From the NCBI GenBank assembly GCA_043228905.1, contig JBHGNT010000017.1, positions 2,666,001-2,730,000 of the forward strand: 64,000 nt of DNA, given 5' to 3'. The translations under genes and the position numbers were made by a program. Positions 12,901-57,517 of this stretch are shown here, piece after piece. The number at the start of each line of letters is the position of its first letter. Position 1 is the first letter of the stretch. The notes below the pieces were generated by a model. That model did no database searches and had not been told where the DNA came from. It saw only the letters and a program-made list of their open reading frames with translations. The DNA is from Azolla caroliniana. Taxonomy: Eukaryota; Plantae; Polypodiophyta.

Positions 12901-14604
12901 CTGATTCAGTTTCTTATAGTTCACACCCGCTGACTTTCTGCGTTGAATCCGTCCAGTTCCCTTAGCAGGTTTAGAAGATCCATCATCGGAGTGAGGTGGA
13001 GAACAATCCCTTTTCTGTTGTAATAGCCTAGCAGCTGCAACTCGAACTTCAATGTCTTTCCTTTTCTCCTCTGCAGTTTTTACACTTTTTTTTACTTCAT
13101 GGGGTCTTTTAGGCTGAGAAATACGCTGCTCCATGGGGTCATCCACAAGTTTTCTCATATGGATAAACCGTAGTTTCTCCTCATTCCCCCCTGTTCCAAG
13201 TGTTTTCATCCAGTTTGAAATCGATGCAATATTAGCTTTCTGTACAAGGTTACGAAGCTCCTGTTGTACTAGTTGAATCCGTGCTTCAGCTGTTGTGGAC
13301 TTGTGTTGGCCTTCTTCATGAAGACTCTCTTTTGCAGGATCGACAGGATCTTCAATCTCTAGAGCTCGTTGACACTCTTGAACCACTTCTTCATAGCCCT
13401 TACTATCTGTGGCTGCCTCAAATAGAAGCTGTGCATGAAATTGTGCGTACTCAACTGAGCATGGAGACAATAAGACAGCCTTTTGAGCAGCATCAATGGC
13501 ATCCTTGAGATGCCTCTGCTTAGTGGTTAGGTCTTCAATCATGGAAGCAAGTCTCATACATATGTGACCTCGAATTCTCTGAACCAACGCATTGCCTTCA
13601 TATCGGACACACGCATCTCTTATGAGCCTCAGTGCCTTGTTGCTGTTGCCCCTCCTTAATGCTACAAGGGCCTTCTCGCAGTCGCTCTTCACATTTGAAA
13701 GATCTTCTTGACATGTTTTACTTACGTCCAGACCTTTGCTTATTCCTGGCCCTCCACCATTGCCAGCATGTTCTACCCCATTGGTTCTAACATTTTCCTC
13801 TAGGTTTACACCATTGACTGCAAGAGAAGATAAAGATAAGTTTCTATAATCTGCAGTAAAGTCCACATTTTATCAAAGAAACATATGTAATCACAACTTC
13901 GATAGCTACAAATAACTGTCACTCTCTATATACCAGAAACCCTGTGATTATGGTCTCACAATCTGTCATGATCCTGTGAGGAAAGCTTTCCAGTCTGCAT
14001 TAAGCTCTTGTGCTTCAATAAAATAAACGGAAAATCACAAGTGTAACTGGTAGAAATTCCGATTGATAATGTTTTTACAATCTGCACAAAATTTTAGTGC
14101 TTCTGTAGCAAAATATTCTAGCCTATATCCAGACAAGAATTTGAATCACTTGACATTCAGGTCAGAGTCTACATAGACTGTCAGTCACCAAAGATTCCTA
14201 TTTAAGTGGTTCCAATAAACTGTTCAGCTTGGATCCTGCTCTGAGAGTGGAAGAAAGAAGAACAAAACAACAGCATGAAAAGAAATGTTTTTACAAAAGG
14301 AAGGATCAGGAGCTTGGGAAATGTTCAGGAGAAAAGACCGTGAGATGAAAGGAAGGACAAATCCTTACCTGAAGCAGAAGGTTAATGAACAAACGCCATG
14401 AGATTAGAAAGGAAGGAATAGAGGGGAAGAATAATGCATACCTGAAGCACTATGAGAGAGTTCAACATCGAGAGGAACAAGAGATCTGATGGGTTGGAAC
14501 GAAACAGAATCTGATGGAGGAGGAGGGTGAAGAAACGAGCCATTTGAAGAAGAAATGGAAGAAACGGCTGAACGAGGAGCCGAGGATCGTTTTTTCTGTC
14601 CCAT
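3958..14604 (-). CDS. Ubiquitin carboxyl-terminal hydrolase-related protein (TPR-like DUF627, DUF629/C2H2, C-terminal USP53/54-like UCH domain), about 15 exons
   Basis: Exon 1 MGQKKRSSAPRS (14604-14442, phase 1) splices to 13850-11131. Further exons at about 11061-10933, 10838-10647, ~10545-10504, 9137-~8420, ~8362-8300, ~6713-6617, ~6525-6377 (GLQNEIGQYNCFLNVVIQ), ~5307-5091 (SLWHL), ~5004-4727, ~4640-4493, ~4425-4290, ~4209-4123 (YYGQHYHCF..WVMFDD), and ~4048-3958 (GHLQPQVLFYE, TAA). GT-AG sites seen; some internal boundaries are approximate. Confidence 0.9.
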
Positions 14605-15007
14605 CCACAACAGCGTGAGGAGGCAGATCGCCTCCCATGGATCAGAAACGAGCTGAAAGGTACTGAAATGGAGACCAATACATGGAAAAGGTGTAGTAAT
14701 AATAATAGCAAGAGGAAACCTGCTGGGGCGATATGGGGAGAAGAGGATGAAAAATAAAGCAGGCTAGGGTTTGCGTCTGCACAGACCTTCCTTTTCTTCT
14801 TTCCTGCCTTCCTTCCTGTAATTCTTTCCTTCCTTCCTTCCTTCTCCGCGAAAAAGAAAGCGAAAAGGCTTGCCTGAGAAGGAAGGAAAGAAACTATGGC
14901 GACTCGCGACTGTGAAGAAGTAAGTAAACAGAAGATTAGAGAAGAAGAGACGATTAAATAGGTAGGGCCTGTTTCGTAAATTTTGCATTCACGGTGTTTA
15001 GCTAACC

Positions 15008-15182
15008 TAACCATGGTTAAATTCCAACCTCAACCATGGTTAAGCGCTAGCCTTAACCATGGTCAAATTCCAAAGGTAACCATGGTTAAACACCAGCCCT
15101 TAACCATGGTTCAATTCCAAAGGTAACCATGGTTAAACGCCAGCCCTTAACCATGGTTCAATTCCAAAGGTAACCATGGTTA
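15008..15182. repeat. Tandem array of 8 (near-)palindromic TAACCATGGTTA units at 23-24 bp spacing (47-bp higher-order dimer)
   Basis: Cores start at 15008, 15031, 15054, 15077, 15101, 15124, 15148 and 15171. Spacers alternate between AATTCCAAAGG-like and AACGCCAGCCCT-like. Confidence 0.95.
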
Positions 15183-23271: not shown

Positions 23272-23819
23272 TATCTGCGCAGGCAAATCATGCCCTCCTC
23301 CTCCTCCTCCTCCTCCTCCTCTTCTTCTTCTTCTTCTTATGATGATGATGACGACGATGATGAAGAAGAAAGGAATTCCCTCTTCTTATGAAATTGGTGG
23401 AGAAGAAGAAATTTTCTTTCTCTTTCAGTTGTGCGTGAGAATAGAATGAAAATTGACTGCTTTTTGGATGATGACGATGATGGTGGTGTTCTGTTCTGTT
23501 CTGCTCTGCTCTGTGTCTGCTTCTTTATCTGTGTAAAAAGAAGGAAGGCTCGTTTTTCTTCTTCTTTTTTCCGCAATAAGAATAAAAGCTTTCTTTGTTT
23601 TGGTTTATTGCAAGGCAGAGTAGAATGGAGATGAGATTTGTATGTATATGAAGCTGATGTGGATGTATAGATGGATCAAATGTGTGTGTACATACACATG
23701 CACATACATGGATTACACAAATTTAGACATATCCACTACACACTTAGACCTCGTTCCCATGTTCCCATTATTGCAAATGCTCTCCATTCAAGCTACACCG
23801 CTATAAAATAAATTGATTG

Positions 23820-26800
23820 TGTTGAGCGGCAAGCTCAACTGGAGCTGGATCGGCTGGATAAGCATGAGCCGGGAAGCGAGACGGATCGGTAAGCCATGAG
23901 GAACCGAGCCGGCAAGCAACAGAGCCAGTGAGTTGGGGAGCCGGTTAGCCGGATCCAATCGGTAACCGGAAGCCTAGTATTAGTTTAGACTACTAGGCAA
24001 TTATAGTCTCGCAGTAAGTGTGAGAAGCTCGTGTGAGCATTGAAGTACGTGGTACTTCTGTCAGTCCCACGAGGACTTGTATAAATAGTGCTACCGAGCA
24101 CAGTTGTAAGTGATAGAGTGTTTTATATTTTTTGAATATAGCTTTGAGGTTCTGCTCTCTCTGTCTCTCCCCGTGTACTCTGTGTATTCCCTGATTTCCC
24201 TGTCTTCTAACGCTTCCGCAAGTAATCGTTTTCATGGTATTAGAGCGCGAGGGTTGAGAACCTCCGCAGTCGACAAACGCTTGAAAGCAAACCCTAACAG
24301 ACAGAGAAGTGATGGATAGAGGAATGACTAGCTCGCTCCTTGTAGAGAAACTCGACAGATCCAACTACGCATCTTGGTCGTACAAGATGCACCAGTACTT
24401 GCTTGGGCATGGCTACTGGAGCTTCATCGAAGGAGCCAACGAAACAACACCTGATGCGGCACATAAGGATTTCCCAGTGTGGGAACAATCGACAAGCAGA
24501 GTGATGTACTGCTTCGCGTCCAGTGTCGGAGACCAGCTGCTGAGCCACATCCGAGACGCCAAGACGCCGAAGGAGGCTTGGGGAAACCTGAAGAAGGTTT
24601 TCACCGCAAGCACTACGGCTCGGAAGCTGCAACTCCGACAGGAGTTGAGCAATGTCCGACAGAAGGACATGTCAGTGGCGGATTACACGGCCCGGATAAA
24701 AGAGATCTGTGACTCGCTTGCCTCTATCAATGTTACCGTAGAGGAAGACGAGATGGTACAAGTCTGTCTTGGGGGCCTGGCGTCTAAGTTCAGAGCATTC
24801 CGAACGGCGGTATGTACAAGAGAGAATACGTCATCATTTTTCGACTTACAGTCGATGCTCCTTGTAGAAGAGAACCATGCCGGTGCGTCAACTAGCGCAC
24901 CCACTGACAGCCGGATGCTGTACACGGAGGCAGATCGGTCCCATGGGAGTGGTGGACGAGGCGGGTCGGCATGCAATGGAGGTGGCCGGCAAGAGAAAGA
25001 ACGAAGGCACAGAGAACGTGCCAATAGTAGTTCCGGGACTTCCACAAGCAGGGGGAGTCAAGGCGGTGCCGGAGGCCGACAAGACAAATCTGCAACGGAA
25101 TGTTGGTATTGTGGCAAAGAGGGCCACAGAGAAAGTGAGTGCTGGAGAAAACGCACCGATTCGGACAAATTCGGATCCGGCAAGGCCGGCAAGGATGGCT
25201 GGCAAAGCTTGCACTACGCGAAGGGATCGGGAGGATCCAAGAACGGTAACGGGCCAACCATGGTGATGAAGCACGAGGTGAACTCAATGAAGAAGACCAC
25301 TTCCAAATCGGAGGAAGTGTGGTATGTTGATTTTGGTGTGTCGAACCACATGACGAGCCACAAAGAGTGGTTCTCCTTCTTGGAGAAACCGGATCAACCA
25401 GGTGTAGTCAAAACCGGAGACGACACTCCTCACCCAATCGTGCACGTTGGAGAAGTCCCTTTGAGCCACGTCGGACAGAAGGGGAAGCTGATGAACGTAT
25501 TACACGTTCCGACAATCACGAAGAACCTGGTGTCGGTCGGACAAATCGTCGACCAGGGGATGTAGGCGCGGTTTACGCACCTTGGGTGCTTCATCGAGGA
25601 AGAGGGCCAGATTATTGCGCAAGGGCGTAGAGACGGGAGGATGTTTATCCTCGACATCAATGACTTCAGCACCGCTTTGTTTGCAAAAGGACAGAAGGTC
25701 GAATCGGACATCGACCTGTGGCACAAGCGGATAGGCCACTTCAATTGCCGGAGGCTTCAAGACCTGCAAACGAAACAAGTTGTTTTCGGTTTGCCGAAGT
25801 TTAGCGGCCGGAAGGCCCAAGTATGTGAAGCCTGCCAACTCGGGAAGCAACACCGACTTCCATTCACTACTGAATGTAACCGGAGCCGTAACAAGCTCGA
25901 CCTTATCCATTCGGATGTGTGGGGATTGGCACAGAATGTTAGTCTTGGCGGGAGTCGATATTTCGTCTCCTTCATCGACGACTTTACGCGGCACACATGG
26001 ATCTACCTCATTGAGTGGAAGAGTGAAGTCTTCGAGTGTTTCCGGAGCCTCCAAAGCATGGTGGAACGGGAATCGGCGAGGAAGATCAAATGCCTGTGGT
26101 CGGATGGCTATTCAACAGTTATCTGCAACAAAAGGGAATTCGGCGAGAGTTCAACTACAGATACACACTGCAACAGAACGTTGTTGCCGAAAGGAAGAAC
26201 TGGTCGCTCATTGATGCGGCAAGGGCAATGCTAGAGGAGAAGAGCATGCCCAAATTCTACTGGGCAAAGGCAGTCCAAACGGTTGTCTACATCCAGAACT
26301 GGATCGGTGACAAGGTGTCAGCTCACGAGCTGTATTTCGGGCGGAAGCCGAATTTGAGACACCTTAAGATCTTCGGTAGCATTGCATATGTTCATGTACA
26401 GATGAGAAGCGGAGGAAGCTGGATGCAAAATCGGAAAAATGCATCCTAGTCGGTTATGCTCAAGAGCAAAAGGGTTATAACTGTTATAACCCCCGGACAA
26501 AGCAGGTTTGAGTTAGTCGAGATGTCGAGTTCGATGAATCGGCATTGTGGTACTCCTTACCGACTCCAACTTCCGACTCTGACCCGATGCTGGAGGATGA
26601 GGCCAGTGAGCCTGAACCGGCCCAGGTAGATGATGATGAAGCGTGGACTCAGGATGAGAGTCCGGAATCGTTTCGGTTGAGCGGGCCAAACGAGAGACTG
26701 AGTCAATCTGACCAGTCCAATGAGGAACCGACGAGTAGTGGAGACTCTGCCGTGCACTCCCCGCGCAAGGAACCGAGGAGACGGATCACGTGCAAAGAGA

Positions 26801-29552
26801 AGGGGAAGAAGAAGATGTTGGAATTCGAATCCAGCAACGATGAGTCGGATCGGTGTGCATCTAACTCCGACAAGGAGAAAGGCGGATCTTTGGCAACGAA
26901 GACCAAACCGGCCGAGAAGGGCCTCAAACCGGGTAATGGTGAGTTACGCCGGTCCACCCGCCAGAAGGATCCCGTCAAGCGGTACGGGTACAATGAGTAC
27001 ATGGCGCATCACTATGCGTACATGACTAAGGTGGCGGAAGTGCGTGAGCCGGAGAGCTACGCAAAAGCGGCCAAGGACGCAAATTGGCGTGCCGCTATGG
27101 AGGAAGAAATGCGGGCACTTGATGTCAACAAGACATGGGACCTAGTTGACCCTCCTCGTCGCTGTAAACCGATCAGATGCAAGTGGGTGTACAAGATAAA
27201 GTACAACGCCGATGGTTCAGTTAACCGGTACAAGGCCCCGTTAGTGGCGAAGGGATACGCGCAGGCCCATGGAATCGACTACGACGAGACCTTCGCTCCG
27301 GTAGCGAAGATGACGACGGTTCGTGTGGTGCTGGCGGTTGCTGCAGCAAGGGAGTGGCATCTTCACCAGATGGATGTGAAGAATGTGTTTCTTTAGGGTG
27401 ATCTTGAAGAAGAAGTCTTTATGACTCAGCCCCCCGGCTTTCCATCAGAGATGAACAAGTCGGCGGTATGCCAGCTGAAAGAAGTCGTTGTATGGCCTGA
27501 AGCAAGCCCCTCGAGCTTGGAATGTGAAGATCACGCACCGGCTACGTAAGATGGGGTTTGTGGCCTCCAAGTCCGACTCTTCGTTGTTCATCCGGCAAGG
27601 CTCAACCGGTCTGGTATGTATCCTGCTGTATGTTGATGATTTAGTCATCACCGGACTGGGTCTTTCAGAAGTTAACCGCGTTAAGTCCCAGTTGTCGGAC
27701 GCATTTGAGATGAAGGACCTGGGGGACCTTCATTATTTTCTTGGGATTGAGGCGATCCGAACCCCCAATGGCATATTGCTCTCACAACGACATTACGTCT
27801 TGAATATGTTGTACAAGTTCGGCATGACAGAATGTCGACCTGTCTCCACATCCTTGGACCGGAACAAGAAGCTTTGTCCCAACTCCGGACCGGCTTGCAA
27901 CGAGAAACAATTCCGACAAATTGTCGGAAGCCTTATTTACTTGACTATCACTCGACTTGACATCAGCTATCCGGTCGGAGTGATAAGTCAGTTCATGCAG
28001 AAGCCGACCGTGGAGCAACTTCAGTGCGCGCAACTGATATTGTGATATGTAAGCGGCACGAAGGACCGGGGACTGTTATACCGACGAGGTATAACCGCTG
28101 AGCTAGTCGGCTACACAGATGCCGACTGGGCCAATGATGCGTCGGATCGCAGATCCACTTCCGGTTTTATGTTTTCCCTTGGGAGCGTAGTTGTTGCATG
28201 GAGCAGCAAAAAGCAGCCAATAGTGGCTCTATCAAGCACTGAGGTTGAGTACCGAGGCACGACTGTTGCCACCTGCGAAGCCATTTCGCTTCGGCGATTG
28301 CTGCAAGACTTGCGGATCGAGGTACCGACCCCGATCCCGATTTATTGTGATAACATAAGCAACATGCAGCTCGCCAAGAACCTTGTGTTCCATGCTCGCA
28401 CGAAGCACATAGAAGTGCATTATCACTTTGTGCGTGAGCGGGTCCTGAGCGGTGAAGTTGAACTACGGTATGTTCACACGGATCGGCAAGTTATTGACAT
28501 CTTCACCAAGCCGCTTAGATCAGACAAGTTGCAGCAGTTCACCGAGATGCTTGGTGTTCAGCATCTTGATGTGCCACACTTGAGGGGGAGAACGGGCAAA
28601 GACACCGGAACGGGCAAAGGCAAAGAGACTGTTGTCGACACTGGTAAGGGAAGAACCGGAAGAGGGGGAGACAAGGAGGCTGAAGAAGTTGAGGATGGAA
28701 GCAAGGCCAAGACCCAGACATGGTCTGATGTGGTGAAGGGCTTGGAACTAGAAGACGAATCGGGAGCAACCGATTCAGACAAGAGCTGGAACGAATCGGA
28801 GACAGTCGATTCGGTTCAATAGACAGATTCGGAAGAACCGGATCAAGTCAAGGCTAAGCAGACACGGATGTAGCGGAAGTCGATGCCATCGCGGAGGAAC
28901 TGACGGATCGGCAAGCATCGGAGTCATAGCAGTGAAGGAGCTGAGAGGGGCCTATTCAGCAAACATGCCAACCGAGGAGGTCGAGGTGCGCAAAACAAGA
29001 GGGGTCATGGCAAACAGAACCGAACCGGACGAGGAGCGCGAGCAAGGCGGAATGACGCCAGGAGAAGTCGGTTGGAAGAACTAACTACCATAGAGGCTGA
29101 CACTAGGATCCAACCTCAAGTTGAGCTTGAGGGGGAGTGTTGAGCGGCAAGCTCAACTAGAGCCGGATCGGCTGGATAAGCCTGAGCCGGCAAACGAGAC
29201 GGATCGATAAGCCGTGAGCAACCGAGCCGGCAAGCAACCAAGCCAGTGAGCTGGGGAGCCGGTTAGCCGGATCCAATCGGTAACCGGAAGCCTAGTATTA
29301 GTTTAGACTACTAGGTAATTATGGTCTCGCAGTAAGTGTGAGAAGCTCGTGTGAGCATTGAAGTACGCGGTACTTCTGTCAGTCCCACAAGGACTTTTAT
29401 AAATAGTGCTACCGAGCACAGTTGTAAGTGATAGAGTGTTTTATATTTTTTGAATATAGCTTTGAGGTTCTGCTCTCTCTGTCTCTCCCCGTGTACTCTG
29501 TGTATTCCCTGATTTCCTTGTCTTCTAACGCTTCCGCAAGTAATCGTTTTCA
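23820..29552 (+). mobile_element. Full-length but decayed Ty1/copia LTR retrotransposon
   Basis: 415-bp LTRs at 23820-24234 and 29138-29552 (TG...CA). PBS TGGTATTAGAGC (tRNA-iMet type) at 24235. PPT GAGGGGGAG. Imperfect TSD GATTG/TATTG. Domain order gag (CWYCGKEGHRESEC)-PR-INT (HSDVWG, AERKN)-RT (LYVDD)-RNase H (DADWA), with stops (e.g. 25563, 27394) and frameshifts. Confidence 0.97.
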
Positions 29553-30331
29553 TATTGCTTATGCGTCTTAGATGAATTGATATATATTGCAAGTGAATTT
29601 GTTCTTTATTAAGAGATTTGATCTGATGTCTCAAAGGCTCGAATGAATAAAAAGTATATTGGATTTCCAAATACATGGAGGTATTTATAGATGTTATAGT
29701 GTGCATGCATACTTTTGATAATGTTTAGCGTTCCTAGGTGACATTTGAATGATGGTTATGTTACATGTACAAGGAATATGGCTTTGTGGTTCATTGATGG
29801 TGAGATGGCAACTTAATCATGTTAAAGCATTTAATTACAACATTGGGAACATGTATCAAGCCTTCTATGAAGTGGGTTTGGGAGCACCCTTTTTCTCTAT
29901 ATTAATTGCATGTGAGATTAATCAAAACATGTGGGAACTCTGAAATATCGACCACATGATGCAACAGTAGTGCGTTGTCTCTTAATTGTGAATATAATAC
30001 CAAAATGGACACATGTTTATTCTCTTTCTATCATAGTCAGGATATAGTAAAAAAAGAAAAAGAAAAAGTACAACTAAAGCTCACGCATTGCGTCTCATCA
30101 TGAAATACAAACTCTAGACTAATTTCTAGACACTAGACCTCTCGAAAATGCAAGAGCTTCTCTTTAGCGAGATTGGTAGCTTGTTTTATGACGTTAGAGG
30201 AGGATTGCCACCAAAAATTTGTACAGGCAATCACATCTCTCCCCAATCATATATAAATATACATATATAACTCTAATTCGATGTCTATAATCTAGCAGCA
30301 CATGTTCATAACATGGATCTCATCCCCAATC

Positions 30332-30675: not shown

Positions 30676-32727
30676 CTAGGGCACGGTTGCAGACATGCCT
30701 GTTCTCTGCACATCCATGTCCTTCTTGTCTTCCTTCCTCTCATCACAGTGCTCAGTGGACAGCTCCGATCTGGTAGCCTCGGGTACCATTATATGCACAC
30801 AAACCTCCCTCATTGATGATGATGATGATGATGATGATGATCGTGATGGTGATGAGGTTGTCTCCTCTCTATGGGCGATGGTGGGCAAGGTTGCAGGAGG
30901 CATGCCTGTACCCTGCACATCCATGCCCTTATCGTCCATTCTATCCTCACAATGCTTAGTGCCCGGCCCTGATTCTGTAAGCTCTGGCATCATTGCATGG
31001 TCACCATCCTTCCCCTTTGATGATAATGGTACCGATGATGATGACCATGATGAAACTGATGACATTGATGATGGTGATGGTGATGGTGGTGCCTCCTCTC
31101 TATGTGTCATGGTGGAACTACCCCTCCACACATCCACCTTGATGAATGCACATAAGAATCCAACACAACCCGACACACCCAATAATGATGTGACAAGATA
31201 TAGGCGAGGCAATGTCCCGAGTCTCATGGTCACGAATACTACCACAATATCGAGGGAGAGATGTGCCAGAAAGACCACGAAAATCTTAACCTGGAAGCCG
31301 CGTTTGCCCAAATGCCCCCCCTCTGACGCATCACTGACCATCGCGTAGAGAGGGCCCATCATCATGCTCATGTATGCAAACACTAGAGAGGTCGGCAATC
31401 TCGTTTTGAGGGTCTTCCCTTTGTCGAACTTATTGTTGTGGAAAAGCGAGAAGAAAAGTGTATATCCTGTGATACATGATGCTATCACCACGAGTGGAAT
31501 TGAGTCTGAGACATGGAACTTGGCTTGCTCTTGGATCGATCTAGTCTTTATGAAGTGTTGTCTTATGTGAACTATAATGTTTGCAAAGGTTAGGCATCGG
31601 ACCATAGTTGCACATAGAGTCACGCCTCCCCCTGTAGTTGCCACTAATACCTTCTCTTTCATGCTGCTCGTTTCTGTGCATGCAACTGATTGTGCCGATG
31701 TGCCCCCATTGTAAGCAGCTGATAGGAGGGAGGCTGCGACCGAGACCTTGAATGTGGTCCACATGCTTGAACGAAACACACCCTCTTGAGTGAGCACAAG
31801 GTAGCCGCAAAATTGTAGAACTAACATGGGAACCCCCTCTAAAGCACTCCCAATGATACAATAGAGCCCATTCACCAATGGACATGTCAAGTCCTTCACA
31901 CTACACATTGAAGAATATCATTTTAAAGATTACTCATAACAATAGATACGACAAGTACACACACGACAATAAGGCAGATAACAATATTAGCTCAATATAT
32001 GCAAGAGAATTTTTAGATATTTTATTTTTTTATAGTGTGAAAGTGGACACTTTCATTCATGTTTTCCAATGGTATTCAACATTACGGATTTTGTAGATAA
32101 TTTGGAGCATAGCTTCCTAGGTGGGAAAGACCTCACTTTCCCTGGGGTTCCATAAAATGTTTCACATGATGAGCTTTAGTTTTCCCACCCCCCATCGACT
32201 CTAATTAGATATGCTCCAGCTCACCTACAAAAATCCTACATCTCTACATTAGATTAATCCACAAAGTATGAATAACCATTGTGAAAATGCAAGTTCAAAA
32301 TGCATAGGAGGGATAAAGAATTATACCCTTGGTAGCTAAAGGTGCACCACACGAGGTTAGCAAGGCGATAGAGATGGATAAGGGGGAGGAAGTAGGCAGC
32401 AAAGAGGGGGTGTAGAACAATATTATCTCGAGTGGCTTTAACTTTGATCTTGAAGAGGAGAGCATTTAGAGAGTGGCAACATGCAAGAATTGCAAGCAAA
32501 GCAAAGAAGTAGCCTGCTAGCTCACTCTTTTGGTGGTGGAGGGTAGCTACCGTAGCCTCATTTAGTGGATTTTGAGTTTTTATTAATGAAGAGAGTTGAA
32601 CGTAACGTGTTGAATATTGCACCAAAACCACCACATTACTCCCAAAGTCGAAGAGATAGGCACCTGCTGAGAACACAATGCTTCCTGTGGCTACAAGCTC
32701 TCTAAGAGTATATAATGGAACCTTCAT
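30676..32727 (-). CDS. Polytopic membrane protein, XK-related (Xkr/CED-8)-like, copy A, about 541 aa
   Basis: Exons 32727-32327 and 31900-30676 splice in frame (GG|T). Many hydrophobic segments. Motifs AYLFDFGSNVVVLVQY, LPLIHLYR, SALEGVPMLVLQ, SVAASLLSAAY, MVRCLTFA. The gene model is well supported; the family call is by eye. Confidence 0.72.
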
Positions 32728-34123
32728 GTTTTTTTCCTTGGTGATCTAGCAATAACCTAGCATGCATATACCCTTATGTAAGCTTAATCATGTTCTTTCT
32801 TAGACCCTATACCAAGTTAACACGTTTCTCATAAAATCTCAAACTTTCCTTGAGCATATTCACTTTTTGAGTGTTCCAATTTCTCTTTATCACGTCTTTA
32901 GATGGCCAACCATTCAAGCGAGCATATCAACCAAAAGGAGAGCCTTGGAAAACAAGCTTCAAACATCTAGTACACTAATAGAATCGTAAAAAAATCAAAC
33001 ATTTGAGTCTACCACTTTTCAAAACACAACTAGAGACCACACATTCTTGCTTTTTAGCCAAAATCTTTGTTATTAATACTCAAGGACAAACACTTCTAGC
33101 ATTGTGGTCACAATCAAGCTAAAAGAAGGGCAATAACTTCATAACATAGAATACAATTGTCAGCATTCCATGTCACAATCTAGCACAATGCATTACCCTT
33201 CCTAGATCTCTCTCTCATGTGTAAAAGTGGAAATTTTGGATTTTTAGTGTTTGATGTGATAGCTTGATGTGTTACGTGACTGATTACTAGTTTTTAGAGT
33301 CTCATATGTCCCGTTTTATATTTGATTTAAAATATAGAAACAATAATAATTTTGAATCGGTATCCTAATGCAAGCGAAAAGAGTTATTTGCCATTAATAT
33401 TATGAACATATTACTAAAAGTGAAAAGGGTGATGGAGGAGTTGAATCATCGTACATTTGGAAACCAGTGAGTAGTTCCCTAGAGTAGGAAAGTGAGTAAT
33501 ATAACAATTTCCTCAAACAGTAAGAAAACTAATTAGTATTATGATGGTATGTAGGTGCGAGTTTAATAATTGTCCTTTAACCGCTATCTTAGGAAGTGCT
33601 TTGATAACTATACGTATGCCTATAGATATTTAGGTTGAATTTACAAGTGAGATACATTGCTTACTTGTAGCCAAATGAGTACTATTGTGGTGCCAACCTT
33701 GTGCTACCACGAGAGTTTTTAAGACACCTCAAGTGAGGCCTCGGTCTTGAAGTAGTATGTATTGTATATTGACCAAAGCAACCGAACTTTGAGTGACATA
33801 ATATACTCAATGATCACCTTTGATTGAGGTAGTTCGTTGTTAAGTATCCATCAACATCTTATCTCTAGTGCTACTACAATTGGGGGATACACTAAAGACT
33901 CCTCTTAGAAGTAGGGCAATTGAACAAGAGAGAGCCATACACTGTAATAGGGTACAAAGGTAATATCTATAAACCATTGTACCCTCCCAAATGTTAAAGG
34001 CACAAAGTTATAATCTAGTTAAATAAGGGAGAAATATAAAGGAACTATAAAACCTTTCAGTAGGGGTTTTCCTTTTAGCATGATTATTAGGCCAAAACTT
34101 AAGTTCTTCTCTCTTCTTCTTCT

Positions 34124-35668
34124 TTTTTTCCAAAATGAAGCTACTTTCCCATTAGTTAGGTAAGATTATTACAAAGAGATTGTACAAGGAGGCTTAAGCA
34201 TAGATCGGGGAATCCCCCTCCGATCAAGTTCTAGAAATTGAGACTAGTTACATCGCCTTTTGGACGGACTACTTAGTGTAAGTACCTACAACACCAACTA
34301 TCCGCATTGAAGGCGTCCGTCCACTTATCACCAGAATGATCAAACCATGCCGCAACACTCCACGATGTTGTTCCTTCCACTTCACAAGCCGCAAGGAGGT
34401 GAGTCACTCTATCCCATACCTTTTGAGCGTGAGGGCAATCCCATAGACAATGCCTCAGAGTCTCAATAGGTGAATGGCAAAGTGGGCAGCCTAATGGGCC
34501 GCCACATTTACCTAGCCATTTGCCAACTGGAACCACATTATGCCCGATTTGCCACCAACAAAACTTTATCTTTTCCGGCAAGTGGAGACGCCAGAAACCC
34601 TTCCAAAAGGTAATGAGCACCTCATCAGGGATGCCCAATGTACGCCAGCCATTGCGTAAGGGGCCGTCTAGCTGCAGTTGAAAAGCCCGACCTAGTTTAG
34701 TGTTGTACTCGAAGAAATGGCAAAATCTGCCATCATGTTTCCACCTGAAATCCCCTGGGTCCCATTCTAGTTCGACGAGGGGACGACAACCATATACCCA
34801 TAACTTCCAATGGGGTTCCACCTTAGCAACATCCGGGTCTGTCTTCCAGATGTTACCAACATGCGCCACCACGCGGATAGGGTGCCAAGAGCCCCTACTC
34901 TGACTCTCCCCAAAAATCTCATCTCTTCCCGATCCGCTCACGCCCTTCAGCGCCTTAACCCTTCCAACCTCATCAAAGAGACCGAACCAAGCATCTTCTC
35001 TCACCTCCCCCATCAGAACCCTATCAACTGCCTCAGCTAGCAATCTCCACATTTTCATGGTTCCCTTGAGGGGAGGGAATGGGACCTCCTGGGCTCCTCC
35101 TAAAGCCACCACGTGTCTCCAATCATCTAAAGAGTGAAGCCCTGTTTGCGCCATCTTTCCCCATGCTAGGCCCTTAAACTGGCCTAACATCATGTTGTCA
35201 CGTGTTCACACCCGAGGGTTCCAAAATAATGGTTGTCTAGACCACTTGGTTAGTGTCTCTGGCGTGTGCTTGACCAATTGATGTCGTACGTGACACCATT
35301 CTCACAAGATGGAGTTCGTGACCCTCTCCTCCGGAAGACAAGCCATCTTGGGTGGGACGCCGCTCATGCAACACCAATTCAAGGAGTCGGGCCAAGGCCT
35401 ACCATACTTGGGAGTCCTTGCCTGCAACCTATTGCGAAGTAGAACCTTCCAACACCCCTTACCTGGCAGGAGGCAGCGAACCACCATTTTGGCTAGCAAT
35501 GCTCAACTCTTCATTAAGGGGTCTATGAGGCCAAGCCCCCCTTTGGCTCGCGGTTGTGTTAACCAATGCCATGACACTCTGGTGGCAGCCATCGGGTTGT
35601 CCTTACCTGACCATATAAACCCCCTGATGGCAGCCTTAACCGCGCGCAATCCTGAAGGGTCCATAATC
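34124..35668 (-). mobile_element. 5'-truncated L1-type LINE (post-RT region and zf-RVT)
   Basis: Translated motifs FIWSG..RVSW..LTQPRAKGGLGLIDP and FWRLHLPEKIKFCWW..CPLCHSPIETLRHCLWDC. Short A-tail (T7 at 34123-34129). Flanking direct repeat CTTCTCTCTTCTTCTTCTTT at 34106 and 35669. Confidence 0.9.
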
Positions 35669-36518
35669 CTTCTCTCTTCTTCTTCTTTCGTATGTATGTT
35701 TATTATTAAAGCAAGATGATAATACAACCCTTGCTATCTCCACTACTTCATTAGTAGCAATATGGCAAGGAAAACCCTCTCAAGTATTGTAATACTAGAT
35801 GACATAACTCTACCTCATCTTGGGACAACGTCCCCATCCAACATAGTTATGAAACTTGGCAAATCGACTTCCCTTTCATCCTATGGAGTTGTTGTGTTAC
35901 CCCATGAAGTCCATCAAACAAGAACCCATTTCTCATGGTTCAATTAAACCACATCCCCAATACCTAAGATAGTCCCTCTCTCTTTCTCCTCTCTCCTTAG
36001 TTAACTTCTTAATTGTAAGTTAAGAGTCAAAGCTTGTACCCGAATAACTTGTATTTATGCTAAGCATGGATTAAGAGAAGCAAATTTGTGTGGATGATTT
36101 GTTGCCAGGTCGCTCTTCTATCAAGTGCACAAGTATGGTAAAGTGTCACATGTTTTAGTATTTAATAAATCTTGTGCAAGTGATCAAGTTGTAAAGTGAC
36201 TTTGGAGTTTGCTTTAGTAGTTCGTATAGTGTAAGTCACTCGAGGATGATTGGCAATCATTGTGGCTTTTCTCACCCACAAAATGGTAGACAATCCAACT
36301 TGTATATATGTGAGTTGTTGTCATCATTATATTAGTGGGGCTTTGACACACACTTGTAATCTTGGCATTTATTAATACGATTATCGTTTTTCCTCTTTTC
36401 CCGATCCGATATTTTTCTTGCCATTGGTTCTTATTAGCAAACTTGCGCATCCATGTCCTTGTGGTCATCATTTTATCTCCAGGGAAGTCTTAGTGCATTA
36501 AACCCATTTTGTAATCTC

Positions 36519-38405
36519 TTATGGTATTATTACATGCACACAAGCCCTCCCCCTTGATGATGATGGTGAGGATGATGTCTCCTTATGTGTAATGGTGGGC
36601 AAAGTTGCAGGCAATGCACGCTCTTTGTCATTCCTTCTCTCCTCACAACGCTCAGTGCACCACTCCCATTTTGTAATATCTTCTGGTATCATTATATGCA
36701 CATAAATCTCCCCCATTGATGAAGAAGACCATGATGGTGATGGTGATGCCTCCTCTGTTTGTGTAGTGATGGAATTACACCTCCTCCACACATCCACCTT
36801 GATGAAGGCCAACAAGAATCCAAAATAACCTGAGACTCCCAAGAGAGAGGCAATGAGATATGGGTGAGGCAACATTCCCAGTCTCATGGTCACAAACACT
36901 ACCCCAATATCCACAGAGAGATGTAACATAGATATAGCCAAAAGCTTGAGTTGAAAGCCACGTTTACCCAAATGGCCCCTCTCGACTGCATCACTAAGTA
37001 TAGCATAGAGAGGACCCATCATCATGCTCATATATGCAAACACCAAAGAGGTTAGCAATCTCGTCTTGAGTGTCTTCTTCCCATTGTTGTCGGGATTATT
37101 GCCGTGAAAAAGCGAGAAGAAAAGTGTATATCCTACAATGCAAGCGCCGATCATCATGAGTGGAATCGAGTCGGAGATATGGAAATTGGCTTGCTCTTGA
37201 ATCGATCTAGTCTTCGAGAAGTGCTCTCTTATGTGAATTATGATGTTTGCGAATGTTAGGCACCGGACCATCGTTGCACATAGAGTCACACCCGCCCCCG
37301 TAGCTCCCACTAATACAATCTCTTTCATGGTGCTCGTCTTCGTGCATGCAACGGATTGTGCCGCGGTACCCCCATTGTAAGCGACCGATAGGAGGGACGC
37401 TATGACTGAGACCTTCAATGTGATCCACATGCTCAAGGGAAACACACCCTCTCGTGTGAGAATCAGATAGCCACAAAATTGTAGAACTAGCATGGGAAGT
37501 CCCTCTAAAGCACTCCCAATCATGCAATAGAGACCGTTCATCAATGGGCATGTCAAGTCCTTCACACTACACATCCAAGACGATCATTTGAGGGCTTACT
37601 TACAAGTTACAACAATAAATATGAGCAAACGAACACAACAATAAGGCACATAACAATATAATTACATCCACATAAAGATGAGAAGTTTTTGGCATTTTTC
37701 TATGTGGGAATGTGCACACTTTACTTTATGGATTTTGCACGCTCAGTGAAGTATAGCTCCCTAGGTGTCTTCAGTGTTGATTTCTTATCCATGTAGGAAA
37801 GACCTCACTTTTCGTTGGGTGTTCATATATTGTTTGATATTTTAGGAGCTTTAGTATTCTCACCTTACATAAACTCTACCTAGATATGCTTCACCAAACC
37901 TAGGAAAATGGTGTTACTATGTTACATTAATCACTATTGAGTGAATTTTGAATACTTGTGAAAAAATGCTAGAGCAAATGCACATGATGGATAAAGAATT
38001 GTACCCTTTGCAACTGAAGGTGCGCCACATGAGGTTAGCAAGGCAGTAAAGATGGAGGAGGGGGAGGAAGTAGGCAGCAAAGATGGGGGCAAGATCAACA
38101 TTACCTGAGGTTGCTTGAAATTTGAGCTTGAAGAGGATAACATTCAAAGAGTGACAACATACAAGGACTGCAAGCAAAGCGAAGAAGTAACCTCCTAGGT
38201 CACTCTGTTGGTGGTGGAGGATAGCTACCTTAACCTCATCTAGTAGATCTTGAGTTTTGATGAATGAAGAGAGTTCAATATAACGTGTTGAATATTGCAC
38301 TAAAACCACTATATTACTTCCGAAGTCAAAGAGATAGGCATTTGCGGACAACACAATGCTTCCTATTGCCAAAACCTCGCTAAGAGTATACACTGGAGCT
38401 TCCAT
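36519..38405 (-). CDS. Polytopic membrane protein, XK-related-like, copy B (tandem paralog), about 482 aa
   Basis: Exons 38405-38005 (401 bp, same length as copy A) and 37566-36519, with the same intron position. Motifs AYLFDFGSNIVVLVQY, SALEGLPMLVLQ, MVRCLTFA. Confidence 0.72.
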
Positions 38406-39219
38406 GTTAATTTCGTTAATGATCTTGTGATGTGCTAGCATGCACATCTTCTTATGTATGCTAAATTATGTTCTCTCATAGAGCTTGTGCCATGTTAACA
38501 CATTTCTCATAAAATATCAAAAGGTTTTATAGAAAACAAGGACCTTTCAAATTTCTCATTACCGCGTCTTTCAAAAAACTCAGGAACAAGGAGAGCCTTG
38601 AAAAATAAGGTTCTTTAATGTTAAAGACGTTTACTATGCATTTTGTATCTTCAAATAACTAGACTTTTAATTTTGCCATTGTTTGAACTTTGGTATAAAG
38701 GAGTGTCAAGGAAATTTGGAGACCAACCGTCAATGCTTTCTAGCTAGTCTTCATATAATCAATGACAATCATTAGTAAGGTCGTGTTCGCAAATGAACTA
38801 AAAGAAGGGAAATAACTTGATAAAACACTAAATAAAGTTGTGGCGCGACATCCGACATTATGCTTCTCTCTCTCTCTCTCTCCACATAGAATGAACCATA
38901 CGTACAATACGTGCATTCACATTTGAGAATGATTCAATCAAACGTGTATGGTAAATCATCTCAAAGTTGGATTGGATTGACTAGGGTCTATATTATATAT
39001 TGATTCACTCTCAATCCTAATAAGTGGACTCTAATCCATTGTGAACCACCAACATAAGTATGGTTGCAATATTTGCATTGTATCACATGCATACTTTTGG
39101 GATGCTTCTTAAGAATCAAGACATCTCTATCATCCTCACTTTAGAACTTTACAAAAAAATGAGTATGAACTATAGAGATTGAATCAAAATATGTCATTAC
39201 AAATTATAATCAAACGTTC

Positions 39220-52457: not shown

Positions 52458-53774
52458 CAGGGATAAAGCTTGAATATTTTCCACTAGGAGAGGATATGAT
52501 ATTACAAAATGAGGCTTATAGAGCTTTACATTGTAGTGTCCGGAGTACTGGTATATGTGATCTTTAAAAGTAAATAGGTTTAATTCATTTGCATAAGTTT
52601 GTTGGTTTCTTGCCATTCTATTGCTTTTATAGGATTTATATGTAAATAATGGAACTCAACAAGTAGTGCCAACTATATTTTGTGGATGAATCTTAACTTG
52701 TTTTATCAGAGTGTCTTGTCTATTTCTTCTTTCCAATGTTAGATTTGAGGTTTAGGGTTTACGAATTGATAGGATTAGCTTCATGAACATTGCACAAGCC
52801 AATATAGTTGATGCACAAATTGTGATTGGCAATCTTCTTGATGTTCACAAATTTATGCTTAATACTGGTTCTAATGACTTATTTTCTTAGAAAGTTGTAT
52901 TTGTGATTTTAATGACAACATGTGAAGAGCTCATATGGTTCAGATCTTATAGAGGAGATAGAGAAAACAATAGCCCTAAGGAGAGGGGGCATGATTTTGA
53001 GTCTTTGACAATAGCCCTAGTGTAAGGAACAAATCCAGAGATGACAGATCACAGTGGCAGAACACCTTTGGTAATTTCTTTGACATATCTGTAACGATGT
53101 ATATATAACAGATGGATCTTCTTATTGAGATAGACATTTTAAAAATTTGTTCAACACATTGTAGTAGCTAATGGCCATTTGGAATGTGTTCACATTTTGC
53201 TTGAATATGGTGCTAATCCAAACAGACGAGGCATGTCTCTCTCCCTCTCCCATAATTTGTTGACAATGTGAATCTCCATAATGTGCAGAAAACTAATTGA
53301 GTTAGCATATGTTGCAAATAATGAAAATAGTGTTCCCCTATGGGAGGCAATTAAGGCACGCCATCCAGTAGTAGCACAATTTCTATGGGAGAACAATGCA
53401 AATTTGAACTCCGAAGAAGATGGAGAACTCTTGTACAATACAATCCAAAAAGGGGATATAGAGGGATTTTTGCAATTGCTCAAATATGGAGCAAAGATCA
53501 GCTTTGTAAAGCAGCTACAGAACTTGATAAAATTGCAATATGCTATTTCAAAGCATTTGCCTCAATTCATTGGCATCCTTGGACATAAAGGCATCAAATT
53601 GGATGACTTTTCTGACTCATCCACCCAGCTGAGCCTGGAGGGTCTTCATATGCTATTTGATAAGCTATCTCCACCATTTAACATGCATTCATGCACAAAA
53701 ACAGGCGAAGAATCTATATTAAACGAAGGGCATGGAGAAGGTCAATACGAAGTTGAATTATTAGTTATACCAAA
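52458..53774 (+). pseudogene. Shaker-type K+ channel (AKT1-like) pseudogene fragment: CNBD and ankyrin repeats
   Basis: IKLEYFPLGEDMILQNEA, LRIDRISFMNIAQANIVDAQIVIGNLL, DHSGRTPL|HIVVANGHLECVHILLEYGANPN, SVPLWEAIKARH..LLKYGA. Frameshifted; no transmembrane/pore region recognised. Confidence 0.85.
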
Positions 53775-54006
53775 TGTTGAGGTATAAACATATGAGAGTG
53801 TAACATGCGTCTCGTTTATGCTCGATTATTATGAGGTAACGGTCGAATAAAAGACCACACAAAAAACAGACACAATGGTACAAAATAGATGACCCAAGAT
53901 TTAATGTGGAAAAACCCTCAATGAGGGAAACAACCACGGGACAAAATCCAAAATAATCCACTATCAACAAAGAGGATACAACACAAATACAAGCTCCTCT
54001 AGATAC
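53775..54006 (-). mobile_element. LTR-like remnant interrupting the AKT1-like sequence and itself cut by the Gypsy element
   Basis: Begins TGTTGAGG where AKT homology stops. Contains GATTTAATGTGGAAAAACCCTC..AACCACGGG, reminiscent of plant copia LTRs in reverse orientation. The other end is not in the window. Confidence 0.4.
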
Positions 54007-55085
54007 TGTCACGGATGGAAAATATGCACAAGAGAGTAGAAGATAATCAAAGGGATGAAATGATTAATTGAAAGACTTCGTAACTGGTATTGTTCACCTT
54101 GAATTCCTTCAAGGTGAACTCAACTATTTATAGTACACGACATGCATACTTGTTGCATGCATGTGAATCTGCAATAGAGCATGTAGGTACGCATGCATGT
54201 GCCAAGTGTAAATACTACAAGGGAGCAACTATGCACATGATGCTAGCTAAAAACTATATATGATTGTATACTAGATATGTTGGTTAACCTATAACACTTG
54301 ATTATAACATGGTCATGTCAAGAGTTCGAATCTTGACATTATCCCCCCTCCTACACCGCCTTCCCAAATTAGGCGTTGTTTTGTGGGGATATCGATGAAG
54401 AAAATCTTGGACCACCTCTGGGGCATTTTGTAAATTTTCCGGTGGTTCCCATGTGGCATTGGACATGAGGTAACCCTTCCACAAGACGAGGTATTGCCAG
54501 TGTCAACGGTGCCAACGTGAGTCAACGATTTGGTCGACCTCGTATTCTTCCCCTGTCATGAATTGCATAGGTGGTGGTGGTGGGGCCTGACGTCCTGGGA
54601 GTTGTGAAGCATAATGGGGTTCAAGGAGGGAGACATGAATTTAAACTTCGTGAATTCGGAAGTGGGATGGAAGGGCGAGCCAGAAGGCGACATGATTGAT
54701 GCACTCGATGATACATAATGGTCCCAACTTCTTGTAATCAACTTCTTGTAATCAAGATGTGCCGGCGTAACAACCAAACCATGTCTCCGATGACAAAGTG
54801 GGGAGTGGCAGATTGAAGGCAATCAGCCTGCTTCTTGTATCGTTCACTAACGAGACTAAGCTCCAAGGATAAATCATGATGTAGCTCTTCTAAAACGCAG
54901 GCACGATCCTTTGCTGAAGGGTTCACGGAAGTGGTAGGGAGGGAAATGTTGAAACGAGGATGTAAACCATAGTTTGCAAAGAAGGGAGTGATGCCCGTTG
55001 ATGAATGGAGAGAATTATTGTAGGCGAATTCATTGAATGAAAGTAAGTTGACCCAATCATCTTGTTGGTAACTAACCTAGCACCG
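54007..55085 (-). mobile_element. Ty3/Gypsy chromovirus 3' part: integrase C-terminus, chromodomain, PPT and 3' LTR
   Basis: YQQDDWVNLL..EFAYNNS.HSSTGITPFFANYG; chromodomain EYEVDQIVDSR..YLVLWKGY..ATWEPPENL; PPT GGAGGGGGGATAA; LTR 54338-54007 with TGTCA...TGACA ends. Confidence 0.9.
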
Positions 55086-57419
55086 GTTGACGTGCTTCAT
55101 TTGCCTGACGGGCATGAAAGCCAATTCCGACATAGAGTTATGGCACAAGTGGATTGGCCATATAAATCTCCAAAAGCTCAAGGCAATGCAATCGAAAGGA
55201 GTCGTCATCAGGCTCCCGACATTCACAGAGAAAGAGATTGAAGGCGTGTGTGCCGCTTGCCAATTCGGCAAGCAACATTGGCACCCATTTCCGAAGGAGC
55301 GGAATGTGAGCAAAGGCGTACTCGACGTAATTCATTCCAATGTATGGGGTCCGGCTCAAACAACGACATTCAGTGGAAGCCGATACTACGTGACCTTCAT
55401 TGACGACTTCTCTAGGCACACTTGGATCTACTCGATGCGGCAAAAGAGCGAAGTGTTCGGACACTTCCAAAAATTGAAGAATGAAGTCGAGAAAGCCACG
55501 GGCCGACATGTACGATATCTTCGGTCGGATGGAGGCAAGGAGTACTTCTCTGACGAATTTTCGGCGTTTCTACGGAAAGAAGGAATACGGCGAGAGTTTT
55601 CGTGTCGACATACTTCGCAACAAAACGGAGTGGCCGAACGCAAGAATCGGCACATCCTTGAAGTGGCACGAACTATGCTTAACGAAAAGCACATGCCGAA
55701 ATCGTATTGGGCAGAAGCAGCTAACACAACCGTCTATCTCGTGAATCGGTGTACGACATTAGGTGTGCACGAACTTACTCCACACGAGAAGTTCTTCGGA
55801 AAGAAGCCGGACCTATCGCATGTTCGGATATTCGGTTCCATTGCGTATGTGCACATCCCCGATGAGAAGCGTCAAAAACTCGACCCGAAGTCGGAGAAAT
55901 GTATCCTCGTAGGATACTCACTGGAGCAAAAGGCGTACAAGTGCTACAACCCCTCAACTCGAAAATCTCACGTAAGTCGAGACATCATTTTCGACGAGTC
56001 CGATCCTGGTATGCACCAGAGACAACTTCGACTTCGATTCCACTCGACCTGGATTCCGTCGAAATAGAGATAGAAACTGAAGATCTCATCACGTGCATAT
56101 TCGAAGAAAGTTTGATCACGACCCGACTGAGCGGACCACAAGAGCCTTTGAGCGATCAAAGCACATCTCGGCCGAGTCCGAAGATGGACAAAGGGAAGGC
56201 GAAAATGCCAGAGTATGAAGACGATCACTTCGACGACAACGAATCAACTCACTCCCTCGATAGTGAGTTCAAAGGCCTTGAGATGCGGAGAAATGGAGCG
56301 GAGAAAGCTTTAGTATCTGCAAATGAGAAGCTCCACCGATCCACCCGTGAAAAGAACCCCGTAAGCCGATTCGGCTACAACGATTATATGGCATACCATT
56401 ACGCCTTTATGATGAAGGTCGCAACAGTACGGGAGCCGGAAACCTTTTCCGAAGCCGCGAAGGACCCACGATAGATTGAAGCAATGAACGAGGAGATGCG
56501 TGCACTACGCAAGAACGACAGATGGGATATCGTTCCTCACTCATCGCACAAGAAGGCGATAGGCTGCAGATGGATCTACAAGGTGAAGTATAATGCCGAT
56601 GGCTCTGTCAATCGCTACAAAGCTCGACTTGTAGCGAAAGGATACACGCAAACACATGGAGTCGACTATGAAGAGACCTTTGTCCCGGTGGCAAAGATGA
56701 CGACGGTGTGGACCGTGATCGCACTTGCAGCGGCAAAAGGGTGGCACCTCCACCAAATGGATATCAAGAACGCCTTTCTTCAAGGCGAATTAGACAAGGA
56801 GGTGTACATGGTACAACCACCCGGCTTTGAATCACGCATTCATCCAAAAGCCGTTGTCGTGAAGAATTTCGGCCAGAGGCGGAAACTGGGAAACATTGTC
56901 TACATCGGCGGGGTGCAGCGTGTGTACGCACCCATGTACATTTGGTGTGAATATTGAGGGTGCCTTTATGGCGCCGAAGAGTAGTCAAGTCGGGACAGAC
57001 GATCCCATGTAAGTCGGGATTTATCCCACATTGTAACGCATCCCTCTCCTTGTTCTATAAAAGGAAGGGAACACCCTATGGGAAAGGGTTGCCCATTTTG
57101 CATTAGAGGGTATACCGTTAGGTTTAGAGTTAGTTTCTTCTTCTTCTTCTTCTCCTTCGTGTTCGCTTAGGGTTTGCTTCAGCTCATCTACTGCGCAAGA
57201 CCCCGCTCGACGCGACGAGCCCGTGAGCTCCCCGACGGCGGCTTGGTAGTTGACGACTACTGTAACCTGCCTCGGAACGGCTCGAAGCCGGGAATGTATT
57301 CTTTTTTTTTATATACATATATATGTTTGCGTCTGTCTGTGTATATTCGCGTCTTCGATGGTGTCGGGTGCTTCCCCTTTCCTGCACTTCCTGTACTTAA
57401 GGGTGTGAGTCGGGTTGGC

Positions 57420-57458
<39 letters not shown>

Positions 57459-57482
57459 TGAGTGTGCGTGAGTCGGTGTTAA

Positions 57483-57517
<35 letters not shown>

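Follow-up and report, generated by a model that had tools for sequence, protein, structure and literature searches.

Two tandem genes for predicted XK-family membrane proteins, candidate phospholipid scramblases, in the fern Azolla caroliniana

Conservation of the XK-related family (Xkr/CED-8; Pfam PF09815, TCDB 2.A.112) is said in PMC12334663 to extend 'from nematodes to humans'. Two neighboring genes of Azolla caroliniana raise the question of whether vascular plants possess members of this family and whether these could move lipids across membranes. The genes occupy positions 30,676 to 38,405 of a 64,000-nt stretch of DNA, referred to as the window (assembly GCA_043228905.1, contig JBHGNT010000017.1, positions 2,666,001 to 2,730,000 of the forward strand). 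A sequence-only reading had taken them for a tandem pair of XK-like putative scramblases. Predicted fold, language-model features, a plant sequence profile and a PF09815 match in a Ginkgo relative indicate that both genes almost certainly belong to the XK family. By analogy with characterized members, the pair is likely, at somewhat better than even chances, to represent ATP-independent, caspase-independent phospholipid scramblases.

Family membership is decided by the fold match of predicted models to XKR8, XKR4 and XKR9. Two sequences were modeled, namely the full-length fern homolog P0004, which shares 56% identity with gene 1 in an alignment of 385 columns, and exon 2 of gene 1 from the window. 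The AlphaFold model of P0004 (predicted local distance difference test score, pLDDT, 74; predicted template modeling score 0.73) was compared with 48,161 chains and matched XKR8 at Z 25.4 (311 aligned residues, root mean square deviation, rmsd, 3.4), followed by XKR4 at Z 23.0 and XKR9 at Z 21.4 (300-311 residues), while the next chain reached 7.8. For exon 2 of gene 1, the corresponding values for XKR4, XKR8 and XKR9 are 18.0, 17.2 and 14.4, and the next chain scores 8.7. The structural comparison that the sequence-only reading had called for thus places all three XK proteins far above the next best chain. The predicted fold is the XK fold, i.e. two repeats of four transmembrane (TM) helices each with re-entrant helices in between. 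Foldseek with P0004 lists XKR proteins in all top four rows (probability 1.0, E 0.007-0.02). In the Atlas language-model features, a homolog is assigned to XK-related clusters at 0.92 and exon 2 of gene 2 at 0.89-0.90, the latter with a low recognition value and more weakly than the homolog. A low-confidence Atlas model of the homolog P0003 (pLDDT 0.56) had no XK structural neighbor (best TM-score 0.36 by query); the higher-confidence model made here did match.

At the sequence level, membership is transitive, via the Ginkgo relative. Among 29 scanned homologs, this protein (P0012) is the one that passes the PF09815 cut-off (25.1 versus 24.8 bits), and four others score below it. With a profile built from six distant plant relatives, the window proteins reach about 205 bits, and a six-member plant profile (A4) finds human XKR4 as its sole match in the PDB (E 0.0024), with TM1 and TM3 aligned. 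XKR4 was found weakly with the queries A2, A5 and A7 and clearly with A4 alone. PDB searches with A1, A5 and P0012 returned designed helical proteins and HCA receptors, which corresponds to chance level. Some results weigh against the assignment: Foldseek gives no row at E ≤ 0.001, none of the four open reading frame (ORF) pieces of the window matches in the Pfam scan, which was made on unspliced pieces, and the family profile is passed by a single one of the 29 homologs. Neither the Pfam scans of the homologs nor the structure search yielded a known plant membrane family as a better match. The proposed XK/Xkr-like identity is upheld by the fold, the language-model features, the plant profile leading to XKR4 and the Ginkgo match.

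Both genes are encoded on the minus strand about 3.8 kb apart, and both spliced models could be rebuilt from the window without internal stops, as anticipated, yielding 541 amino acids for gene 1 and 482 for gene 2. Gene 1 consists of exon 1 (32327..32727, 401 nt; TM1 with D27/N31, TM2 and re-entrant helices with R121), an intron (31901..32326, 426 nt, GT..AG, phase 2) and exon 2 (30676..31900), which encodes TM3 (with E155) to TM8 and a Ser-rich disordered tail of about 150 residues (pLDDT < 50, 21% Ser). Gene 2 has the same arrangement, with exon 1 at 38005..38405 (401 nt), an intron at 37567..38004 (438 nt, GT..AG, phase 2) in the same position as in gene 1, and exon 2 at 36519..37566, which covers TM3-TM8 and ends in a tail of about 90 residues, shorter than that of gene 1. 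Exon 1 had been called identical in the two genes, which is true of its length, but the encoded sequences are 69% identical (134 codons). Kyte-Doolittle hydropathy (cut-off ≥ 1.3, window 19) gives nine hydrophobic segments for gene 1 and ten for gene 2, within the predicted range of about 8-10. The tail of gene 1 (30676-31100) contains an internal duplication, with a poly-Ser block and a VHIM(V/I)PE unit occurring twice, of which the tail of gene 2 (36519-36790) has a shortened form. A long interspersed nuclear element (LINE)-like fragment is located between the copies and outside both genes (34273..35719, strand not assigned); it was recognized from a zf-RVT domain (PF13966, E 9e-11) in an ORF at 34273-35205 and from high repeat depth at 33842-36179.

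The two genes are part of a duplicated unit (31075-32843 and 36732-38521) that is 78% identical; the membrane cores are 75% identical and the introns about 75%. Over 392 codons, the nonsynonymous rate (dN) is 0.14 and the synonymous rate (dS) 0.51, hence dN/dS is 0.27 (Fisher p 1e-17). The reading frames are therefore not due to chance, and the pair is under purifying selection; a ratio near 1 had been named as the contrary outcome. A tblastn search of the window found these two copies only. In Ceratopteris, neighboring copies likewise occur (08G012400-012500 and 08G015700-016000), so tandem duplication is recurrent in ferns and the proposed local duplication is supported.

Gene 1 is transcribed and spliced. 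Parts of the gene were found in seven runs, of which X5 is from a related organism; X1 and X7 have their variants in common and possibly constitute a single data set. Contigs of X1 and X7 cover the exons at 99% identity or more, and the intron donor and acceptor are both in use in spliced contigs. A cryptic cassette exon of 93 nt is located within the intron (32132..32224, minus strand), and its inclusion leads to a stop at codon 135. The sole contig that bridges the two exons (run X7) includes this exon with canonical joints, which counts against the scramblase reading. A similar joint connects 31900 to about 32117 in run X5, a loose contig end in run X6 is compatible with an acceptor 11 nt further upstream, and on translation all four combinations of cassette-exon sites stop early. 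In run X1, contigs terminate exactly at 32327 and begin again at 31901, as expected where a direct splice and an alternative form diverge, and from these ends we infer a direct exon 1-exon 2 splice. Since the full-length homologs all have the direct junction as well, it appears to exist alongside the cassette form. The 93-nt exon is best regarded as cryptic. The idea of a conserved 'poison exon' was discarded, as the copies are similar to the same degree in all three parts of the intron (73%, 75% and 76%) and the splice sites at both cassette ends are altered in L001, a gene-2-like copy outside the window. At 32224-32219 (minus strand), a donor-like GTGAG comes directly after the cassette acceptor, as in a recursive splice site; this arrangement is absent from gene 2 and L001. 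Exon 1 and most of exon 2 of gene 2 are uncovered in X1, X2 and X7; these runs were chosen with gene 1, so that silence of gene 2 is not implied.

Among named homologs, those of Adiantum and Ceratopteris are closest, with 49-56% identity over exon 2. In a phmmer search with exon 2 of gene 2 against 1.84 billion representatives, ten proteins were found at E ≤ 0.001: two from Adiantum nelumboides, two from A. capillus-veneris, one each from Ginkgo and Selaginella, and four unnamed. Uncharacterized homologs are GOP47_0022657, GOP47_0021746 and GOP47_0020682 in Adiantum, KP509_08G012500 and 08G015700-016000 in Ceratopteris, LOC9651110/LOC9660796 in Selaginella and Gb_00561 in Ginkgo. Fragments of homologs end at a common residue, which implies the same exon 1/exon 2 boundary. 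A tree was built from 15 plant rows with no outgroup, short exon-1 fragments and near-duplicates being left out. It groups the window pair and one unnamed copy (support 99/100) within a near fern clade that is 51-57% identical to the window genes. Further Adiantum genes as well as Selaginella and Ginkgo are among the deeper paralogs, which show 25-29% identity. Compared with the other plant homologs, the window lineage has a long branch (0.62), has lost the E at position 142, and has a five-residue insertion after TM2 and a different tail.

The homolog searches operate near the detection limit. Within their limited sensitivity, no named relatives from flowering plants, mosses, animals, prokaryotes or viruses were retrieved; low-sensitivity searches of phages, viral contigs, prokaryote genomes and BFVD were likewise negative (in BFVD at E ≤ 0.001). 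A search with a distant-member profile recovered two of its own members among 8000 candidates and is uninformative on mosses, algae, conifers and flowering plants. The Sylvanvirus protein A0A3G5AIM6 reached a probability of 0.98 against the fern model (E 0.038, TM-score 0.31, rmsd 36), an unconvincing match that may reflect a partial XK-like fold. Within a literature search covering titles and the beginnings of abstracts, with subscription papers mostly outside its scope, no study of a plant XK protein was found. An Adiantum paralog (GOP47_0020682, 'XK-related protein' in UniRef) and the Ginkgo protein are already XK-related in databases by automatic label, which tempers the surprise, and the InterPro and TCDB taxon lists may already include plant members.

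Residue equivalences were obtained by a comparison by eye of the plant alignment with the alignment of the human family that supplements PMC8500837; the literature consulted also included PMC10243564, PMC5199145 and PMC9333335. The acidic vestibule of XKR4 (D125/D129/E313, corresponding to D26/D30/E141 of XKR8) has its plant counterparts in D27, N31 and E155, so that two of the three acids are kept. Position 27 is acidic in all 13 rows with a residue, E155 is present in 15/15 rows and is G in two partial Ceratopteris copies outside the alignment. In TM3, ALEGVPMLVLQ aligns with XKR4 304-350 and corresponds to the FLE-x-APQL-x-LQ motif with E, P, L and the last Q kept. R235 (13/15 rows) and D351 (12/14) are jointly lost in the same two rows, which are sisters, so that the loss is a single event. 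In its motif and position and in being lost together within one clade, the pair fits the R214-D295 bridge of XKR8 at the sequence level. R121 of gene 1 fits R98 of XKR8, which forms a salt bridge with D129; gene 2 has C at this site, and both copies lack the partner acid. The XK motifs quoted in the sequence-only reading were all found in gene 1. Its final G-C-x-GF-L helix is present there too, but gene 2 reads GYFGFL, and as a family hallmark this motif does not hold, resembling XKR8 alone in the human family alignment.

Among the characterized proteins, human XKR8 (XKR8-basigin, PDB 7DCE and 8XEJ) is the best overall structural match, and plant equivalents exist for its D26, E141, R98 (gene 1), R214 and probably D295. 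In contrast, D30, K134, E137 and D129 have no plant equivalents, and the W45 gate cannot be mapped. Unlike XKR8 and rat XKR9 (7P14, 7P16), the plant proteins have a disordered Ser-rich tail instead of a caspase-cut C-terminal helix. In plants, a basigin-type partner is not known. Human XKR4 (9BOJ) and CED-8 of C. elegans share the predicted fold (Z of the homolog and of exon 2 against XKR4, 23.0 and 18.0), the aligned TM1 Y-x-x-D-x-x-x-[D/N] and TM3 LE-x-x-P-x-L-x-LQ motifs and, by eye, R-x-x-TFA in TM5, and XKR4 also lacks the E137 acid. Identity to them is only 12-13%, however, the second TM1 acid is N and APQ is VPM in the plant proteins, the loop after TM1 is longer, and both the C-terminal YY..HP motif and a DxxD[GSA] site are absent. 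Human XK (XKR1, the partner of VPS13A) shares with the plant proteins the fold family, the lack of a caspase site, a smaller complement of acidic residues and an SLLS-x-x-Y motif in TM4. The caspase-3 site DxxD[GSA], which marks the apoptotic Xkr subfamily, was found in neither window protein. The VPS13A-binding beta-hairpin of XK (bioRxiv 10.64898/2026.01.07.698282) has no strands in the model of P0004 or of gene 1 exon 2; a link to VPS13, raised earlier, thus finds no support through an XK-type interface.

A caspase-independent scramblase is proposed because full-length XKR4, CED-8 and XK scramble in liposomes uncut by caspase (PMC12334663) and the plant proteins have neither the caspase motif nor the VPS13A hairpin. 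In this model, D27, N31 and E155 would line a polar vestibule or groove in the N-terminal repeat through which lipid head groups would pass, with the membrane locally thinned as has been proposed for XKR4 and XK; thinning or a TM1-TM4 groove is described as the route in full-length XKR4, CED-8 and XK. The R235-D351 pair may stabilize the C-terminal repeat, like R214-D295 in XKR8, and the Ser-rich tail could be a regulatory part, possibly through phosphorylation as in Xkr8.

The main rival is that these are true XK-fold proteins in which scrambling is lost or much reduced, serving as a membrane anchor for a pocket-bound partner or moving another solute; we consider this unlikely, though the strongest of the alternatives. 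Several observations count in its favor and against scrambling. A shared fold alone proves no function, and few XK members are proven scramblases. The third vestibule acid is N in 13/13 plant rows (D30 of XKR8), the equivalents of K134, E137 and D129 are gone (no acid occurs at the D129 position in either copy), and the Q of APQ (Q145) is M in the fern clade, although it is Q in most other plant rows. In mouse Xkr8, K134A, E137A and D30A each strongly impair activity in cells (PMC8500837). Purified Xkr8 and Xkr9 are inactive in liposomes (PMC12334663), and a cytosolic pocket has been proposed as a general partner-binding site of XK proteins (bioRxiv 10.64898/2026.01.07.698282). On the other hand, D27 and E155 persist from a lycophyte through ferns to Ginkgo although overall identity is about 25%, XKR4 D129N, a counterpart of the plant N31, lowers scrambling just 1.3-2.5-fold (PMC12334663), and some of the same residues are dispensable elsewhere, as human XK scrambles without the D30 and E141 acids (family alignment) and XKR4 without E137. 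An improbable reading concerns the pair itself, which would add little function if gene 2 were a decaying duplicate and the output of gene 1 were throttled by the stop-containing exon. At two sites that are otherwise invariant or nearly so in the fern clade, gene 2 has the changes R121C and G22N (position 121 is R or K in 12/13 rows, gene 2 being the exception), the close gene-2-like copies P0025 and L001 keep R121, its terminal branch has a dN/dS of about 0.46 (0.033/0.072), and cassette-type splicing occurs in X7 and X5. Yet the frame of gene 2 is intact, dN/dS between gene 2 and L001 is 0.31 (p 5e-7), private changes at conserved columns are comparable between the copies (11 versus 8 of 189), and the X1 contig ends at 32327 and 31901 fit a coexisting direct splice. 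L001 itself (699-2482; 87% nucleotide identity, 415-residue frame) has an 11-residue in-frame deletion after TM3.

The origin of the family had been left between ancient retention and horizontal acquisition. The tree and the named members show that the family predates the split of lycophytes, ferns and seed plants, and it was most likely present in the vascular-plant ancestor and expanded by tandem duplication in ferns; a recent transfer into this genome is unsupported. A giant virus, protist or oomycete as the horizontal source of the family in early vascular plants, instead of green-algal descent, is rather doubtful. The named matches among the ten representatives come only from ferns, a lycophyte and Ginkgo, and XK-related clusters exist in Oomycota, but no non-plant candidate donor sequence was retrieved, and since the plant paralogs are just 25-29% identical to each other, algal and moss orthologs could escape detection. 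The intron and the plant neighborhood exclude contamination or recent transfer.

The unstudied vascular-plant branch is a candidate for plant lipid scrambling. It has neither of the known activation devices (caspase site, VPS13A hairpin) and constitutes a natural experiment on the Xkr mechanism, with two of three vestibule acids kept and a D129N-type change throughout. As a long shot, vascular plants with swimming sperm (lycophytes, ferns and Ginkgo, a pattern that rests solely on which named matches turned up) might have kept a caspase-independent XK scramblase that flowering plants lost, perhaps derived from a giant virus or protist, which would expose phosphatidylserine (PS) in gamete fusion or programmed cell death. 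If true, this would supply a plant PS-exposure enzyme so far undescribed. Ceratopteris is a transformable model fern.

The genomic neighborhood is plant-like, with a DUF627/DUF629 gene and copia elements. The former is represented by an ORF of 919 amino acids at 11110-13869 (minus strand; DUF627, E 5e-21, and DUF629, E 5e-72), flanked by ORFs at 8417-9163 and 14382-15029 (minus strand), possibly additional exons of that gene. A full-length-looking Ty1/copia element is located at 23819-29553 (plus strand), with 417-nt long terminal repeats of 96% identity and with gag, integrase and reverse transcriptase in broken frames. A second copia-type element (55081-62960, plus strand) is split by a nested element with a GC-rich interior, which is bounded by 793-nt direct repeats (56855-57647 and 61012-61786, 95%). 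A 171-amino-acid ORF at 53272-53787 (plus strand) appears ankyrin-like by eye.

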